A stretch of 64,000 bases of DNA from an uncultured Hyphomicrobiales bacterium (GTDB lineage: Bacteria > Bacteroidota > Ignavibacteria > Kapaibacteriales > UBA2268): assembly GCA_964581505.1 (NCBI GenBank), contig CAZOOR010000004.1, forward strand, positions 3,610 through 67,609. The letters run 5' to 3'. Made by a program: the position numbers and the translations under genes. The notes beneath the pieces were generated by a model, which worked only from the letters and a program-made list of their open reading frames with translations, was not told where the DNA came from and made no database searches. Positions 3,133-41,038 of the stretch are shown one piece after another (positions within the stretch are counted from its first letter, which is position 1; the number at the start of each line of letters is the position of its first letter).

Positions 3133-3780
3133 ATGACTATGATAAAATATTTTAAAAATATGTGGTTGGGTTTGTGGACAGTTTTTGTCGGCATGAAAAT
3201 CACTATTATTCACTTGTTCAGACCTAATGTTACAATTCAGTATCCAAATGAGAGATTCCCAATTCCGGACGGAAGCGACGGAACTCATGTGGGTCGTAAC
3301 AGACTTGAAATGGATATGGATTTGTGCGAAGGTTGTCGCCGTTGTGCTAGAATCTGCCCTGTTGATTGTATTGATATTGAGACAATTATGGTAGTCAAAA
3401 CAGTCGAACAACCGCTTCTGAGCAATGGAGAAAAAAGACCTCTTTGGGTGCCTAAATATGAAATTGATTTCGGTAAATGCTGCTTCTGCGGACTTTGCAC
3501 TACTGTTTGTCCTACCGATGCAATATATCATACTACCGAATTTGAATATTCTACGTACAAGCTTGAAGGCAAAGAAGAATATTGGTTAGACAAAAAAGAC
3601 AAATACGACAAGGCGTTGCTTTATAGTTTTGTCAATAAACCAAAAGAGTTCTTCGACGAAAAAGCCGCTATTCTTGCGGAAGACAAAAAACGCAAAGCCG
3701 CCGCAAAAGCGGCAAAAGCTAAAGAAGCCGCTGCTAAAAAAGCAGCCGAAGAAAAAGATAACAAAAAAGAAAATGATTAA
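3133..3780 (+). CDS. nuoI: NADH-quinone oxidoreductase subunit I (2x[4Fe-4S]) with K/A-rich C-terminal tail
   Basis: two CxxCxxCxxxCP ferredoxin motifs (CEGCRRCARICP; CCFCGLCTTVCP); last ~45 aa are AKAAKAKEAAAKKAAEEKDNKK low-complexity. Confidence 0.88.
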   Translation: MTMIKYFKNMWLGLWTVFVGMKITIIHLFRPNVTIQYPNERFPIPDGSDGTHVGRNRLEMDMDLCEGCRRCARICPVDCIDIETIMVVKTVEQPLLSNGEKRPLWVPKYEIDFGKCCFCGLCTTVCPTDAIYHTTEFEYSTYKLEGKEEYWLDKKDKYDKALLYSFVNKPKEFFDEKAAILAEDKKRKAAAKAAKAKEAAAKKAAEEKDNKKEND

Positions 3781-34491: not shown

Positions 34492-35673
34492 TTATTTAGC
34501 TCTGAAGAATTCTACTCTTCTGTTTTTCTGCATATTTTCCGGCGAATTATTAGGAACTATCGGCTCGTCAGGACCTTTACCGTCTGTTGTCAATCTCGTT
34601 CCGTCAATACCTTTTTTGACCAACCAAGTTTTGACTGCGGCGGCTCTATCTTTTGATAGCTGCATATTGAAATCTCTCGAACCGGAATTATCAGTATGTC
34701 CGACAATTTTAAGTTCCATCTCCGGACGGCTTTGCAATGCTTTAAGCACGAAACCGAGTATTCTTTCGGATTTATTAGTAATGTCTGCTTTGCTTGTGGC
34801 AAACTCAATGTTTCTAAGAATTAATTTTCCACCAACGGGAATACTAAGAATATCATCATCAGCATCTAATGGGTCGGCGCCGTTATTAACTTCAATACCG
34901 TCAATAATACCACCACCGTCAGTATCAGGGTCTAATGGGTCTGTTTTGTATTTATTGACCTCTTCGCCGTCAAGCAAACCGTCATCGTCAGTATCGGGAT
35001 TATTCGGGTTTGTGCCGATTTCTTTTTCATACTCATCAGTAAGTCCGTCTCCATCACTATCTCTTTTGATGACTGCAACAGTGTAATGAATACCTAAACG
35101 CCCGTTCCAGTTGCCGTCTGCCCAATCGTCATAAACAGGATTGAAATCATCAGTTGTACTTAAACCGAGACCAAAGTTAAAATCAAGTCCCCAACTATTT
35201 GATAAATCATAAGTAAAGCCTGCAAGAATAGGAATACTCATAGCAAAACCGTTATCAGATGATTCAGGGTCGCGGTTTGTCGGTAGTTCGCTTACTGAGA
35301 AAATATTTGCACCAATACCAAGTGCTAAATATGGATTAAATGTTGTCCCCGGGTCAAAGAAAGAGTATCTAACTCTCAATTCAGGAATAATCTGCGTGGT
35401 TTCGTATTGCGAAAATCCGTCAGTTCTGTCTGTTCCGTTTCCGAGATAAGTAAATGCGAATTCAGGTGTTAAATAATCACCCAAACCATTGATATAAAGT
35501 ACATAAGCACCAAAAAGAGGACCAAAAGTTCTGTCTTCTTGTCTTCCTTCGTTAATACCACGTGAAATACCGCCACCAATACCGACTGCTATTCTTTTAT
35601 CTTGTGCAAATGTATCATCTGCCCAGCTCAATAATAGAAAAGATGCTAAAAATAGAGTAATGATTTTCTTCAT
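34492..35673 (-). CDS. OmpA-family outer membrane protein with thrombospondin type-3 (TSP3) repeats
   Basis: signal peptide, N-terminal beta-barrel, DxDxDGxxD Ca-binding repeats (DSDGDGLTDEYE, DTDDDGLLDGEE), C-terminal OmpA domain (NSGSRDFNMQLSKDRAAAV). Confidence 0.8.
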   Translation of the reverse strand: MKKIITLFLASFLLLSWADDTFAQDKRIAVGIGGGISRGINEGRQEDRTFGPLFGAYVLYINGLGDYLTPEFAFTYLGNGTDRTDGFSQYETTQIIPELRVRYSFFDPGTTFNPYLALGIGANIFSVSELPTNRDPESSDNGFAMSIPILAGFTYDLSNSWGLDFNFGLGLSTTDDFNPVYDDWADGNWNGRLGIHYTVAVIKRDSDGDGLTDEYEKEIGTNPNNPDTDDDGLLDGEEVNKYKTDPLDPDTDGGGIIDGIEVNNGADPLDADDDILSIPVGGKLILRNIEFATSKADITNKSERILGFVLKALQSRPEMELKIVGHTDNSGSRDFNMQLSKDRAAAVKTWLVKKGIDGTRLTTDGKGPDEPIVPNNSPENMQKNRRVEFFRAK

Positions 35674-35997
35674 TAGAACCCTCCAATTTAATTAATTTAA
35701 AAATATTAAAAGAACAATTATCTTTATTAAAATATATAAACGATAGTTTATGCTATTCATTTTATTTTCTATTTTTCAATAATTCAAAAGCAATACGAAA
35801 TTGTAATAATTATTTTTATCAAATTAATTATATTCCTGTAAAATAGTGCAAAAACATCATTAATTCCTAATTATTTTTTATATTATTATCCTCATTTCCA
35901 ACATTTCCATTAGTTTTTCATCTGAAATTTTCTCAAATTCGTATTTAATAATTATTCATTACAAGTAATTATTATTCATAAAGGATAGAAATAACTA

Positions 35998-36507
35998 ATG
36001 AAATTTCTCGGAACCATAATAAAATGTAATGATGATGGAACATTAGTGCTTACCGATATTCCGGGTGAGCTGAGCGGCTTATCAATTCCGGCTGATGTTC
36101 TAATTGGCTATTCGGAACAAACGGCTTCGGCTTATGTTTTGGAGAGTTTTGAATTCAGAGGCAAGCGGCTAATTGTCAAGCTCAAACAAATCAATTCTTA
36201 TGGACGTGCTAAACAATTGATTGAAACGGGGATATTTATTGAAGCCGATTTATTGATTTTTGAAAATAATGAAGGACACTTTGTAAGCGATTTAGTTGAT
36301 TGCACTGTGATTGATGTTGATACTAATGAGATAATCGGCAAATTAATTGATGTATATACTATGCCCGCAAACGATGTCTGGATAGTTAAGACTAATGAAG
36401 GCGAGCTTCCGCTACCTGCTGTCAAGGAAGTAATTAGAGATGTTGATTTGGAAGAAAGAAAGATATTTATTAAAATGATTGACGGATTAAAGGATTTGAT
36501 TACATGA
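35998..36507 (+). CDS. rimM: 16S rRNA processing protein RimM
   Basis: 169 aa; RimM N-terminal beta-barrel + PRC barrel; directly upstream of and overlapping trmD. Confidence 0.7.
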
Positions 36508-38021: not shown

Positions 38022-38348
38022 TAAAAAAATACCTTATTTAATCTTAATCAGGGATATAGACGTAATATGTTTAAATACATTGAAAATAATTACAAATTAT
38101 TTTTTTTGTTTGGCTGAAAAGCGATTAAATAATTTTTGCAGGAATACTCAATTTTAATTATGTTGGAGAAATATAAAGTAAATTATCTGTTTTTTAGCCG
38201 AGTATTTTACATTTCAGGATATAATTAAATTTAGTATTTAGGACGTACTTTAAACAAAGATGTGGTACTAAGTGAACTAACAGAAATGGCTTTTTTACCT
38301 AAGTATAAGCTGAAAGATGCGGTTATATTCTTTGAAATTGATAGTAAA

Positions 38349-38546
38349 ATTTCTACATTTTACTACTAATTTCTACACTTTATTACGAATTAGTGTATTT
38401 TTACTACACTGCCATACGATAAAGCGGCAATTATGAATTACGGCATAATTAGTTATTATTTCAATATGTTATGAGATTTACACCATTAACCCGTTTTCTA
38501 CACTTTACTACGAATTTCTACACTTTTCTACACTTTTCTACACTTC
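38349..38546. repeat. Two clusters of 11-bp direct repeats TTCTACACTT (>=6 copies) alternating with TACTACGAAT, plus an inverted copy (TAGTGTA)
   Basis: 38349-38412: TTCTACATTT TACTACTAAT TTCTACACTT TATTACGAAT TAGTGTATTTT TACTACACT; 38494-38545: TTTTCTACACTT TACTACGAAT TTCTACACTT TTCTACACTT TTCTACACTT. Confidence 0.85.
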
Positions 38547-38655
38547 GCTCCAAGTATATATTATTTTTCAAAGGACACAGAGTGAGCGAACACTCGTTTG
38601 CAATATAAATGAGTTAGAGTACAATCGCAAAGAAAGGGTTTAAAAATGTTTTAAA

Positions 38656-39690
38656 TCAGAAATATGTGCTTACCGCGAATTCATATTGTTCAATAAAAAT
38701 CTTTTTAAAAGCAGTAATATTATTCTGCTCATAAAATAATAGCATTGCCTTCTTATAATCAACACTATCAACCGTTCTGAAAGAAATTGGACAATAATTA
38801 TTATTAATCAAAATAGCATTACTGACAATCCTCGCAGTCCGTTTATTGCCATCAACAAATGGTTGGATATATGAAATAAGCATTAATGCCAAAAGTGCTT
38901 TTTCAAACACATTATTATTTCCGTTAATCAAATCACACATATTGGTAATGGCTTCTTTAATCTGAAATTCATTATCAATAGGCGTGTAATTAGTACCTGA
39001 AATGCCTACTCGTCTTTTTCTTATATTCCTATCCACAGCAAGTTCTTTTGTTAAAATACTATGAATATCTTCAATTTTAGGAACTATTATTGGAAATAAA
39101 TAATCGGGCTTATCAATAATAAAATCTATTGCATCTTTATGATTTAGCAACATTACCGCTTCTTCTTTGGTCTTGCCTGCGGCAGTTTCTCTTTCTTTCA
39201 ATAATTTTTCAGTTTCCAGTAATGAGTAAGTATTTCCTTCAATTTGTGAAGATTTCCAACTTAAATCAATAGCCAAGCGTTCCAATTCTTTTTTATACTG
39301 GAACTCACTTAGTTCCGAAATATTATTTAAGAAAATTTTCTGCAAAGAATTTAGTTTATTGATTTCATTTTCAGTAAATAACTTAACATTTGGTAAAATT
39401 CTCGTTAATAAATCAAAGTTAAAATTATTAATAATTACCCTTTCATCAATTTCTTTCCGATAGTATAAATCCAAATCAATTGGTTCAAATAATTTGAAAT
39501 ACGGTGAAATTTTATATCGGGTTGTTTTTCCTCTTCCCGTAACTATAACTAATTGATTTTCAATTAATTTTGAAAGAGTTCTTTTTATTGTAGCAATACT
39601 TTTTTTACGTACAATGCCTTGCAATATCTCATTTGATGAGCTTGCATCAGCGGATTTTAGATAATCTAATATTTCTTTTTCAATGTTCAT
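38656..39690 (-). CDS. Fic/Doc-family protein with N-terminal wHTH and degenerate catalytic motif
   Basis: 344 aa; SSQIEGNTYSLLETEKLL (conserved Fic upstream block) and YIQPFVDGNKRTAR at 38830-38865 in place of HPFx(D/E)GNGRxxR (His->Gln, Gly->Lys). Confidence 0.7.
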   Translation of the reverse strand: MNIEKEILDYLKSADASSSNEILQGIVRKKSIATIKRTLSKLIENQLVIVTGRGKTTRYKISPYFKLFEPIDLDLYYRKEIDERVIINNFNFDLLTRILPNVKLFTENEINKLNSLQKIFLNNISELSEFQYKKELERLAIDLSWKSSQIEGNTYSLLETEKLLKERETAAGKTKEEAVMLLNHKDAIDFIIDKPDYLFPIIVPKIEDIHSILTKELAVDRNIRKRRVGISGTNYTPIDNEFQIKEAITNMCDLINGNNNVFEKALLALMLISYIQPFVDGNKRTARIVSNAILINNNYCPISFRTVDSVDYKKAMLLFYEQNNITAFKKIFIEQYEFAVSTYF

Positions 39691-39829
39691 TTTACACCTT
39701 TCAGCTCACAAAGATAAGATATTCGGTTCAATAATACAAAAATATGAGCCGTATTTCCACTATATTTGAGCGGCAATAGGTTTTAAATCATACATATAGT
39801 CATTCAATTTGTTATTTAGTTTGCAGAGA

Positions 39830-40753
39830 TTATTTGTTAATCATTTTGATTAATTCTTCGGGTTCATAAACCATATCATATTCTTCTTTACGAATTTCAT
39901 TACTTGTTAAATCATTTTTTATTCTTTTCAGGAAGTTTTTAAAATCCTTATTAAGTGTCAGTTTATTAATCGTTTCCCAATCTAAATTATCTCTTGTTCT
40001 TGCAGGCAATAGTATCTCGGTAGATAAAGGGTCAGCAATATCAAGCTTAATGATACCAATACCAAAAGATGTTGAAAGACGGGTTAATTCATTCAAAAAA
40101 TCTTCATTATTAGATATCTCTGCGGCAACAAGATAGCTTTCATTAGCCCATGAAGAATTAGATACTGCTTGAAAAAAATTCTCTCTCAATTTACCTAAAT
40201 TCAAATCTCTTTTTAATTCAAATGAAATAATTTTGATTGAGTTATTTCCAACTGATGAACTTAAATTTAGCACTTCCGAACTCCATTCTCCAATTGGAAA
40301 ACAGCATCCAACAATATCAGGATGAACCCATTCGCCATATTCCTTTTTTTTGGATTTTGAATGATTAATTGTTTTTGTATAACATTTCAAATGATAAAAG
40401 GCAAAATGAGCTAAAAACGGATGCAAGTGTTTTTCAAGATATGATTTCTTATGTTTGTTTTCTGTTATGTCTTCGGTATTTTCAGACTTTTCTATTTTCT
40501 CTAAATCAAATAGATATTCCTGTTCTTTTAGATAAAATCTTTTTGGACGTTTCCCTACTACTGCAAAAATCGTGTTGGCGTTATCTCTTTCGTTTACATA
40601 AATCTGCGCCCCCAATGTAGCCCAAGGTGTTTTACCTTGACTATTCAATTTTGAATTATAGCCTTTATCCTCGGCAATCTTCCATATTTCATTTGCAGTT
40701 AATGGTTTCTTCTCTTCTATTAACACTTTCTCAGCTAATTCTAAAAATGTCAT
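39830..40753 (-). CDS. HARE-HTH domain protein fused to putative PD-(D/E)xK-like nuclease domain
   Basis: N-term MTFLELAEKVLIEEKKPLTANEIWKIAE...TPWATLGAQIY..FAVVGKRPKRFYL fits HARE-HTH; C-term EWVHPDIVG ... IISFELK candidate PD..ExK; tentative. Confidence 0.4.
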   Translation of the reverse strand: MTFLELAEKVLIEEKKPLTANEIWKIAEDKGYNSKLNSQGKTPWATLGAQIYVNERDNANTIFAVVGKRPKRFYLKEQEYLFDLEKIEKSENTEDITENKHKKSYLEKHLHPFLAHFAFYHLKCYTKTINHSKSKKKEYGEWVHPDIVGCCFPIGEWSSEVLNLSSSVGNNSIKIISFELKRDLNLGKLRENFFQAVSNSSWANESYLVAAEISNNEDFLNELTRLSTSFGIGIIKLDIADPLSTEILLPARTRDNLDWETINKLTLNKDFKNFLKRIKNDLTSNEIRKEEYDMVYEPEELIKMINK

Positions 40754-41038
40754 TATGTATGAACCCCCTAACTAATTAAACAATGCTTTTTACTTATGTT
40801 AATTATTCGTATTCTAATATCACGATTTATGATATTTTTTTAATACCCATTATTCTACTTCTTCACTGTTTTTATTTTCGTTCTTTATTATAAAGCAATA
40901 TAATAAATTTTATGCTACTGTTTTACACACAGGTAATATTTGCTGTGGGAATTGATGTTATATAGATAGAATAAGATATACTTGGCTCATTTGCCTGTAT
41001 TGAGCAACAAAAGATATGCAGGATTCCAATAAGAAGAA

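Follow-up and report, generated by a model that had tools for sequence, protein, structure and literature searches.

A HrgA/COG2958-family protein with HARE-HTH and predicted PD-(D/E)xK nuclease domains in a low-GC island of a Kapaibacteriales-lineage contig

The gene at positions 39830–40753 (minus strand) of a 64,000-nucleotide stretch of DNA from an uncultured Hyphomicrobiales bacterium (GTDB lineage Bacteria; Bacteroidota; Ignavibacteria; Kapaibacteriales; UBA2268; GenBank assembly GCA_964581505.1, contig CAZOOR010000004.1, forward-strand positions 3,610–67,609; the whole stretch is called the window below) encodes an ordinary further member of HrgA/COG2958, a named and computationally predicted protein family. 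The protein joins an N-terminal HARE-HTH domain to a C-terminal domain predicted to be a PD-(D/E)xK nuclease core, its predicted catalytic residues are conserved across the family, and its gene sits in an acquired island of low GC content. We give an even chance to the reading that it is a solitary, horizontally mobile endonuclease acting on foreign DNA. An original prediction, made from the letters of the window, had proposed the same fusion; it had missed the name of the family and the fact that the two-domain architecture was already published, in 2010 and 2012.

Domain architecture and conserved residues

The open reading frame (ORF) is preceded by a Shine-Dalgarno-like AGGGGG run located about 11 nt 5′ of the ATG. 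The gene and its parts, with the evidence by which each was delimited, including structures predicted by AlphaFold2 (AF2), are as follows.

39830–40753, minus strand: complete HrgA/COG2958-family gene, 307 amino acids (aa), ATG start, stop codon at 39830–39832 (ORF list)
40529–40753, minus strand: HARE-HTH winged-helix domain, aa 1–75, presumed reader of DNA or modified DNA (Pfam and AF2)
40436–40528, minus strand: variable linker, aa 76–106, partly helical and partly of low confidence (conservation and AF2)
40046–40435, minus strand: predicted PD-(D/E)xK nuclease core, aa 107–236 (AF2, conservation, Foldseek)
40433–40435, minus strand: codon of invariant E107, the motif I glutamate, which opens core helix α1 (translation, 114 sequences)
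40316–40321, minus strand: codons of invariant P145-D146, motif II or ‘PD’ (translation WVHPD at 40316–40330)
40211–40219, minus strand: codons of E179-L180-K181, motif III or ‘ExK’ (translation SFELK at 40211–40225)
40145–40174, minus strand: family signature FQAVSNSSWA, aa 194–203, in and after core helix α2 (translation, conservation)
39833–40045, minus strand: C-terminal extension, aa 237–307, with one strand (246–249) and three helices (AF2 secondary structure)

Two alignments were used: a main alignment of the window protein with 113 homologs (n=114; 35–84% identity to the query) and a second alignment of 37 sequences restricted to the C-domain. The Pfam HARE-HTH model (PF05066) matched aa 1–66 of the window protein with E=1.1e-14 and 55 bits against a cut-off of 25.9 bits, in agreement with the original assignment of the N-terminal ~75 residues to this domain, and it also matched all but one (113/114) of the aligned family members. 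Sub-threshold KilA-N and DUF6712 noise was the sole other Pfam signal for the protein. In the AF2 model, the N-domain consists of helices 3–14, 20–30, 32–35 (short) and 43–57 followed by a hairpin of strands 63–66 and 72–75, with predicted local distance difference test (pLDDT) values of 91–97. Going by the order of these modelled elements only, the domain would be a winged helix-turn-helix (wHTH) with an extra helix, followed by a β-hairpin wing, as expected for HARE-HTH.

As short motifs arise by chance, conservation in the family is the proper test of the two motifs on which the nuclease call had been based, namely a PD motif in EWVHPDIVG and, about 30 residues later, an ExK motif in ISFELK. 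Both are present, with D146 and E179 33 residues apart, and both are conserved in the 114-sequence alignment, where E107, W142, P145, D146, E179, F194 and W202 are invariant and K181, Q195 and the S198–A203 stretch are conserved at a level of at least 90%. In the C-domain alignment of 37 sequences, K181 and Q195 likewise do not vary. By this measure of sequence conservation, the quoted PD and ExK motifs are beyond chance, and a predicted catalytic set composed of E107, D146 and E179 (invariant) and K181 (at least 90%) is under strict conservation; Q195 is likely to be an extra active-site residue. Mean identity is highest in the nuclease core (53%), falls to 39% in the C-terminal extension, where D258, N268 and F274 are nevertheless at least 90% conserved, and is lowest in the linker (15%).

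AF2 modelling of the full-length protein with the 114-sequence alignment gave a pLDDT of 93 and a predicted template modelling score (pTM) of 0.73, with a linker block (aa 91–100) at a pLDDT of 55, and a separate run on aa 97–307 gave a pLDDT of 91.7 and a pTM of 0.89. The core is modelled as α1 (107–121), β1 (125–128), β2 (147–151), an inserted helix (159–167), β3 (174–184), α2 (186–200), β4 (205–213), α3 (217–230) and β5 (233–236). In both runs, the predicted order of elements in the C-domain is the α-β-β-β-α-β order of the PD-(D/E)xK core, which is the restriction-endonuclease-like outcome that the original prediction had put to structure prediction. The strand context proposed there for the motifs was also recovered: E107 opens α1, PD is placed at the N-terminal edge of β2 and ExK inside β3, and the conserved Q195 and SNSSW residues are placed in and just after helix α2.

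Foldseek comparison with the PDB placed restriction and repair nucleases in the front ranks (PaqCI, Ecl18kI, FokI, EndoMS/NucS, MspJI, EcoT38I, MUS81 and AspBHI), and searches of PDB sequences gave nothing meaningful, whether the query was the entire protein or a profile of the family or of the C-domain. The conserved motifs, the order of elements in two AF2 models, the Foldseek ranking and the published fold (PMC3045609, PMC3424549) all support the PD-(D/E)xK-like call, and to describe the domain combination as typical of uncharacterised restriction or abortive infection (Abi)-like proteins was fair, the restriction/Abi role being putative.

The family to which the protein belongs is large, with 4568 homolog clusters at E≤1e-3 in a collection clustered at 90% identity and 1571 representatives at 50% identity. 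NCBI gives the name ‘COG2958 family protein’ to 84%- and 68%-identical orthologs (Persicitalea, Pontibacter), and tblastn of plasmids found homologs annotated as ‘HrgA protein’ in Helicobacter, Proteus and Vibrio as well as others labelled ‘COG2958 family protein’. BLASTP against a PGAP-annotated Helicobacter HrgA aligned aa 3–304 of the window protein with residues 5–314 at 32% identity (E=7e-45). Laganeckas et al. (PMC3045609) described DUF511 (PF04373), typified by Helicobacter pylori HrgA, as an N-terminal winged helix joined to a PD-(D/E)xK domain with three motifs, found the N-terminal domain of RNA polymerase delta to be the closest PDB match of the N-terminus, and reported neither a known function nor a methylase at a conserved position. 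According to the same work, hrgA stands in H. pylori at the position of hpyIIIR, 5′ of hpyIIIM; either of the two genes can be dispensed with or exchanged for the other, and some strains that carry hrgA have an inactive hpyIIIM with no lethality. Steczkiewicz et al. (PMC3424549) listed DUF511/COG2958 as group 101 of the PD-(D/E)xK superfamily. Although DUF511 existed as PF04373 in 2010–2012, the nuclease domain is covered by no current Pfam, NCBIfam, PADLOC or PHROG model (an NCBIfam search with the protein gave no match). As no model for this domain exists, public labels stop at ‘HTH domain-containing protein’ or ‘hypothetical protein’, and the family escapes defence finders.

Genomic setting and mobility of the gene

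The gene is one of only two in an acquired ~3-kb island that stands out from its flanks by its GC content (0.25–0.32 against 0.40–0.47).

38022–41038, strand not assigned: low-GC island, ~3 kb, holding only the HrgA-like and Fic genes (composition profile, ORF map)
38656–39690, minus strand: Fic neighbour, 344 aa, wHTH and Fic domains, downstream of the HrgA-like gene and co-oriented with it (Pfam Fic 1.1e-13)

Named by eye from their translations, the flanking genes are PHP-like on one side and butyrate-kinase-like, phosphate-butyryltransferase-like and HAL/PAL-like on the other; trmD lies beyond the PHP-like gene on the opposite strand, and the other housekeeping-type flank genes are mostly co-oriented. 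The island yielded no integrase, tRNA or flanking direct repeats, the ORF map contains no methylase in the island or its immediate flanks, and scans of the island with Rfam and for promoters and terminators gave nothing above chance.

The Fic neighbour matched the PADLOC models SoFic (4e-17) and PDC-S04 (7e-17). In alignment, its active-site motif QPFVDGNKRTAR is degenerate, with Gln in place of the catalytic His and, as in Doc, Lys in place of the second Gly. Since the motif reads QPFVDGNKR, the protein lacks the catalytic histidine; going by these residues, it is unlikely to be an AMPylase and could be inactive or have taken on another role.

Members of the family, at 45–84% identity and near-identical lengths, are found across many phyla of bacteria and also in archaea, and plasmid-borne copies exist too. 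Peptide patterns taken from the FQAVSNSSWA stretch retrieved 581 genome loci, and 80 loci were fetched and combined with the window into a context set of 81 loci, the 1086 ORFs of which were clustered. The 80 loci span Bacteroidota, Ignavibacteria-type lineages, Planctomycetota, Verrucomicrobiota, Spirochaetota, Clostridia, proteobacteria, and ANME-1 and Archaeoglobaceae archaea. DNA similarity of 75–80% between the window and loci of other lineages is confined to 39833–40760 and ends at the borders of the coding sequence. Since the DNA homology ends at these borders and no neighbour family recurs in more than 8 of the 81 loci, the HrgA-like gene moves as a single-gene unit.

The search for a conserved operon partner was negative: no cluster is common to more than 8 of the 81 loci, and the top cluster, found in 8, consists of histidine kinases, a background family of paralogs. 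The HrgA-like nuclease has no obligate partner gene. The 144 immediate neighbours contain 153 Pfam families, and those seen more than once are ResIII, Nmad3, YhcG_C with DUF1016_N, DUF4160, HepT, Fic and CarbopepD_reg_2; seven of these eight are related to nucleic acids, toxins or modification, CarbopepD_reg_2 being the exception. A PADLOC scan of the pooled neighbours returned many redundant models on the same two proteins. Relatives of the gene are repeatedly located among defence genes, as several of the following loci illustrate (identities are to the window).

P0010, 83%: neighbours are ResIII/SduA_C (Shedu-like), an HNH nuclease and a C5 methylase
P0014, P0017 and L002, 78–79%: a DUF3644 gene overlaps the start codon of the nuclease gene by 4 nt
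P0103 (marine; L165–L167, 5001–10936), 63%: 54 nt upstream of hsdM-PDDEXK_3-hsdS-RhuM/Fic-hsdR, a type I restriction-modification (R-M) operon
P0110 (L168–L170, 1–5000), 64%: variable hotspot with TIR, GmrSD_N-HNH and EcoRI methylase genes, or a Gp49/HTH toxin-antitoxin pair
P0003 (89%) and P0025 (68%): neighbourhood unremarkable

At the P0110 hotspot, the upstream cargo differs between samples.

Relatives were also found on viral contigs: IMG/VR yielded 75 (L090–L164), about a third of them at most 1.5 kb from a contig end, and the INPHARED phage genomes contained no homolog. These relatives could be prophage-edge cargo or products of miscalled provirus boundaries. Most of them match only residues ~69–294 of the window protein, and their N-terminal regions of ~80–100 aa are not recognised by Pfam HARE-HTH. 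The N-terminus of Helicobacter HrgA likewise has no Pfam HARE-HTH match at E≤0.1, unlike the window protein with its strong score. As the N-termini of both the viral-contig relatives and Helicobacter HrgA escape this model, the N-domain is evolving more rapidly than the nuclease core. Both groups retain the E, PD and ExK motifs.

Copies from archaea (L029, L033, L040, L047, L048; P0030) are 51–68% identical to the window protein, which suggests either a recent transfer between domains or contamination during binning. Their sources are ANME-1/Methanophagaceae, Archaeoglobaceae, Halobacteriota and a metagenome-assembled genome of the ‘Asgard group’.

Two further features of the window’s composition were observed. 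A 10-nt unit, AGTGTAGAAA, occurs in about eight copies on the minus strand at 38350–38544, in two clusters with 10- or 20-nt phasing, within the 635-bp spacer 3′ of the Fic gene; 8 of the 15 matches in the window lie in this spacer, and the chance expectation for the whole window is 4.7. No ORF or Rfam match accounts for the array, which may be a protein-binding array of the iteron or arm-site type or a relic of the end of a mobile element. A second very AT-rich spot (GC 0.20) is located at 35600–35999, between ORFs ending at 35673 and starting at 35998.

Function of the HrgA-like protein

Were the protein a solitary, mobile endonuclease directed at foreign DNA, its HARE-HTH domain would locate a non-self feature of DNA, most plausibly a modification of the base or backbone as in the Aravind-group proposal for HARE-HTH, and its binding would place the Mg2+-dependent nuclease core on the duplex. 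There, D146, E179 and E107 would hold the metal, and K181, aided by Q195, would activate water for cleavage of the phosphodiester bond. The protein would thus act as a single-polypeptide type IV (modification-dependent) restriction enzyme with no need for a cognate methyltransferase. The type IV-like arrangement of a fused reader and nuclease that stands alone is what was found, with no neighbour conserved in the 81 loci. Also in favour of this reading are the conserved predicted catalytic residues, the nucleases that lead the fold matches, the mobility of the gene, the defence genes around several relatives and the published proposal for HARE-HTH and REase fusions.

Several points weigh against this reading. 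The HARE-HTH domain of RNA polymerase delta contacts the polymerase. Identity of 40–60% across phyla is unusually high conservation for an arms-race gene and would fit housekeeping repair too, and many of the 81 loci have housekeeping neighbours only, as does the window outside the island. Several relatives adjoin active-looking methylases, so any modification dependence cannot concern the common marks N6-methyladenine (m6A) or 5-methylcytosine. The Foldseek matches in the PDB are weak (best E of 2e-3, for PaqCI, and none at E≤1e-3), the protein matched 0 families of PADLOC-DB v2.0.0 at E≤1, and it had no match in PHROG. The literature searched gave no report of nuclease activity or of a phage or plasmid phenotype for any family member. 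As relayed in later papers, the binding of modified DNA by HARE-HTH is itself a prediction. A ‘DUF511’ mention in a 2025 defence preprint was rejected, as the text actually reads DUF5112.

High cross-phylum conservation and the many loci with purely housekeeping neighbours are also what would be seen if the protein were a DNA repair or recombination nuclease of the host chromosome that its winged helix guides to lesions, crosslinks or branched intermediates. This is the main rival, and we consider it unlikely. Its most direct support is structural: Foldseek comparison of the C-domain with predicted viral structures (BFVD) gave eight matches at E≤1e-3 (best 5e-6), and the best significant neighbours, from 5e-6 to 8.5e-4, are labelled ‘MmcB-like DNA repair protein’ or ‘DNA repair protein’, with entries named ‘Restriction endonuclease’ appearing only at an E of ~0.1; EndoMS/NucS and MUS81 are among the PDB matches. 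These fold matches, however, reach a template modelling (TM) score of only 0.36–0.46, and repair genes do not recur nearby, the recurrent neighbours being defence and toxin families. A patchy, cross-domain distribution at near-identical lengths, the low-GC island, the end of DNA homology at the coding sequence and carriage on plasmids likewise speak against a repair role, as does the dispensability and interchangeability of hrgA and hpyIIIR in H. pylori (PMC3045609).

Somewhat less probable still is that the protein is one half of a two-gene toxin/Abi module, whose second member, the adjacent Fic protein in the window or a HEPN/DUF3644 RNase in the nearest subclade, would regulate the nuclease or complement it. 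In the window, L002 and L006, the next gene (+1), on the same strand, is of the Fic family; these three are the sole Fic-motif ORFs among the 1086, and a RhuM-Fic gene lies 3.4 kb downstream in L165–L167. As an obligate partner, Fic was rejected: it is adjacent in only 3 of the 81 loci, and since the adjacent Fic proteins are 26% identical where the nucleases are 79% identical, the two are not co-inherited; the Fic protein of the window, moreover, lacks the catalytic His. The DUF3644 partner is a 325-aa gene (L002 7889–8869, L085 155–1132, L087 119–1096; also L086) whose overlap with the start codon is the same 4 nt in L002 and L085–L087, and the upstream genes of L088 and L089, cut by the contig end and unannotated, overlap the nuclease start likewise. 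DUF3644, an RNase domain of the HEPN group, has demonstrated roles in defence, a HEPN family overlapping it is found fused to wHTH and restriction endonuclease (REase) domains, and the L002 protein retains the HEPN Rx4H motif (RHEIEH). This overlap in the 78–79% subclade suggests an operon of a HEPN RNase and a HARE-HTH DNase. DUF3644 is, however, next to the nuclease gene in only one of the 80 genome loci, and the window lacks it, tblastn having found no DUF3644 remnant there; most family members stand alone. A two-gene mode with Fic or HEPN may hold for sub-lineages but cannot be the general mode of the family.

Far less probable is a DNA-binding regulator, either a chromatin-type or an RNA-polymerase-associated factor, with the nuclease fold serving as a scaffold for binding or oligomerisation. 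The HARE-HTH domain of RNA polymerase delta is the closest PDB match to the DUF511 N-terminus (PMC3045609), some HTH-fused PD-(D/E)xK families have been proposed as transcriptional regulators (PMC3424549), and TrmBL2 and ScpB appear low down in the Foldseek list. The strictly conserved E107, D146, E179 and K181 are the mark of an active enzyme and not of a degenerate scaffold, and no conserved target operon or divergent promoter arrangement accompanies the gene.

The slimmest chance falls to a classical type II restriction endonuclease with its methyltransferase elsewhere in the genome: a homolog lies directly 5′ of hsdM in L165–L167 and 6 of the 81 loci have N6_Mtase genes no more than 10 kb away, but neither the island nor its immediate flanks contain a methylase, none is positionally conserved, and high cross-phylum conservation of the whole REase is atypical for sequence-specific type II enzymes. 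The place of hrgA in the hpyIIIR slot upstream of hpyIIIM would favour such a role; as methylases hold no conserved position and some hrgA-carrying strains have an inactive hpyIIIM with no lethality, HrgA is not a classical type II partner (PMC3045609).

The reading of the window protein as a mobile endonuclease acting on foreign DNA can be extended, with somewhat less than an even chance, to HrgA/COG2958 as a whole. The family would then be an unrecognised but widespread single-gene immune nuclease (~4,500 clusters at 90% identity in bacteria, archaea, plasmids and prophage ends) that lies outside the defence catalogues, reads a modification or other non-self mark with its HARE-HTH domain and has recruited HEPN (DUF3644) or Fic partners in some lineages. 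If true, this would answer the role of hrgA in Helicobacter pylori and, for the first time, give a prokaryotic HARE-HTH domain an experimental ligand. Labelling an unnamed ORF as a HrgA/COG2958 HARE-HTH and PD-(D/E)xK nuclease is in itself routine annotation. The family, however, is large and has a conserved predicted active site, and more than 20 years have passed since hrgA was named with no demonstrated activity; its contexts (HEPN/DUF3644 coupling, islands with Shedu, TIR, HNH or R-M genes, and Fic adjacency) make it a tractable candidate for a single-gene defence nuclease.

Comparison with known systems

Among solved structures, the best match to the C-domain is the nuclease domain of the type IIS enzyme PaqCI (PDB 8em1; Foldseek probability 0.97–1.00, E 2e-3 to 1.6e-2), which superimposes with a TM score of 0.43 (normalised to the C-domain) over 178–184 columns at a root-mean-square deviation of 4.8–5.0 and 8–10% identity. 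PaqCI itself is a multi-domain protein of 480–490 residues, and its recognition domains are unlike those of the window protein. MmcB-like nucleases match the C-domain with E of 2.2e-4 (rank 7) and 3.3e-3 (rank 13) and TM scores of ~0.35–0.39 over ~165 columns; at 11–15% identity, with lengths of 145–214 aa and no HARE-HTH domain, their likeness is at the level of the fold only.

In domain order, the window protein resembles the HARE-HTH and REase fusions described by the Aravind group (Aravind & Iyer 2012, as cited in papers of 2024 on Dnd and of 2026 on BREX), in which HARE-HTH also stands ahead of PD-(D/E)xK. In the account given by those later papers, such fusions are proposed to be effectors that discriminate modification and are predicted to counter invaders. 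As presented there, they adjoin Dnd or BREX modification modules, whereas the window gene and most of the HrgA family are unlinked to such modules.

The type IV enzymes MspJI and AspBHI, both among the Foldseek matches, are like the window protein in uniting a reader and a PD-(D/E)xK domain in one chain with no cognate methylase, and winged-helix nuclease fusions (DpnI, HhiV4I) have been characterised as m6A-dependent type IV enzymes (PMC11037411). MspJI-, AspBHI- and DpnI-type enzymes have no detectable sequence kinship to the window protein, and their readers are SRA domains or winged helices of the DpnI type; in the window protein, the reader is N-terminal and is a HARE-HTH domain, and modification dependence is putative.

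The closest known system is HrgA of Helicobacter (hpyIIIR-replacing gene A; DUF511/COG2958). In H. pylori, hrgA lies upstream of the type II methylase gene hpyIIIM, whereas the window gene lies in a low-GC island with a Fic gene, has no GATC methylase beside it and is not upstream of a type II methylase, such placement being a trait of the H. pylori founder and not of the family. The lineages differ too, the nearest relatives of the window protein being in Bacteroidota and Melioribacteraceae. The two proteins nonetheless share a size of ~305–325 aa and the architecture of a wHTH domain followed by PD-(D/E)xK, and the E, PD, ExK and FQAxSNSSWA motifs of HrgA all align with those of the window protein.

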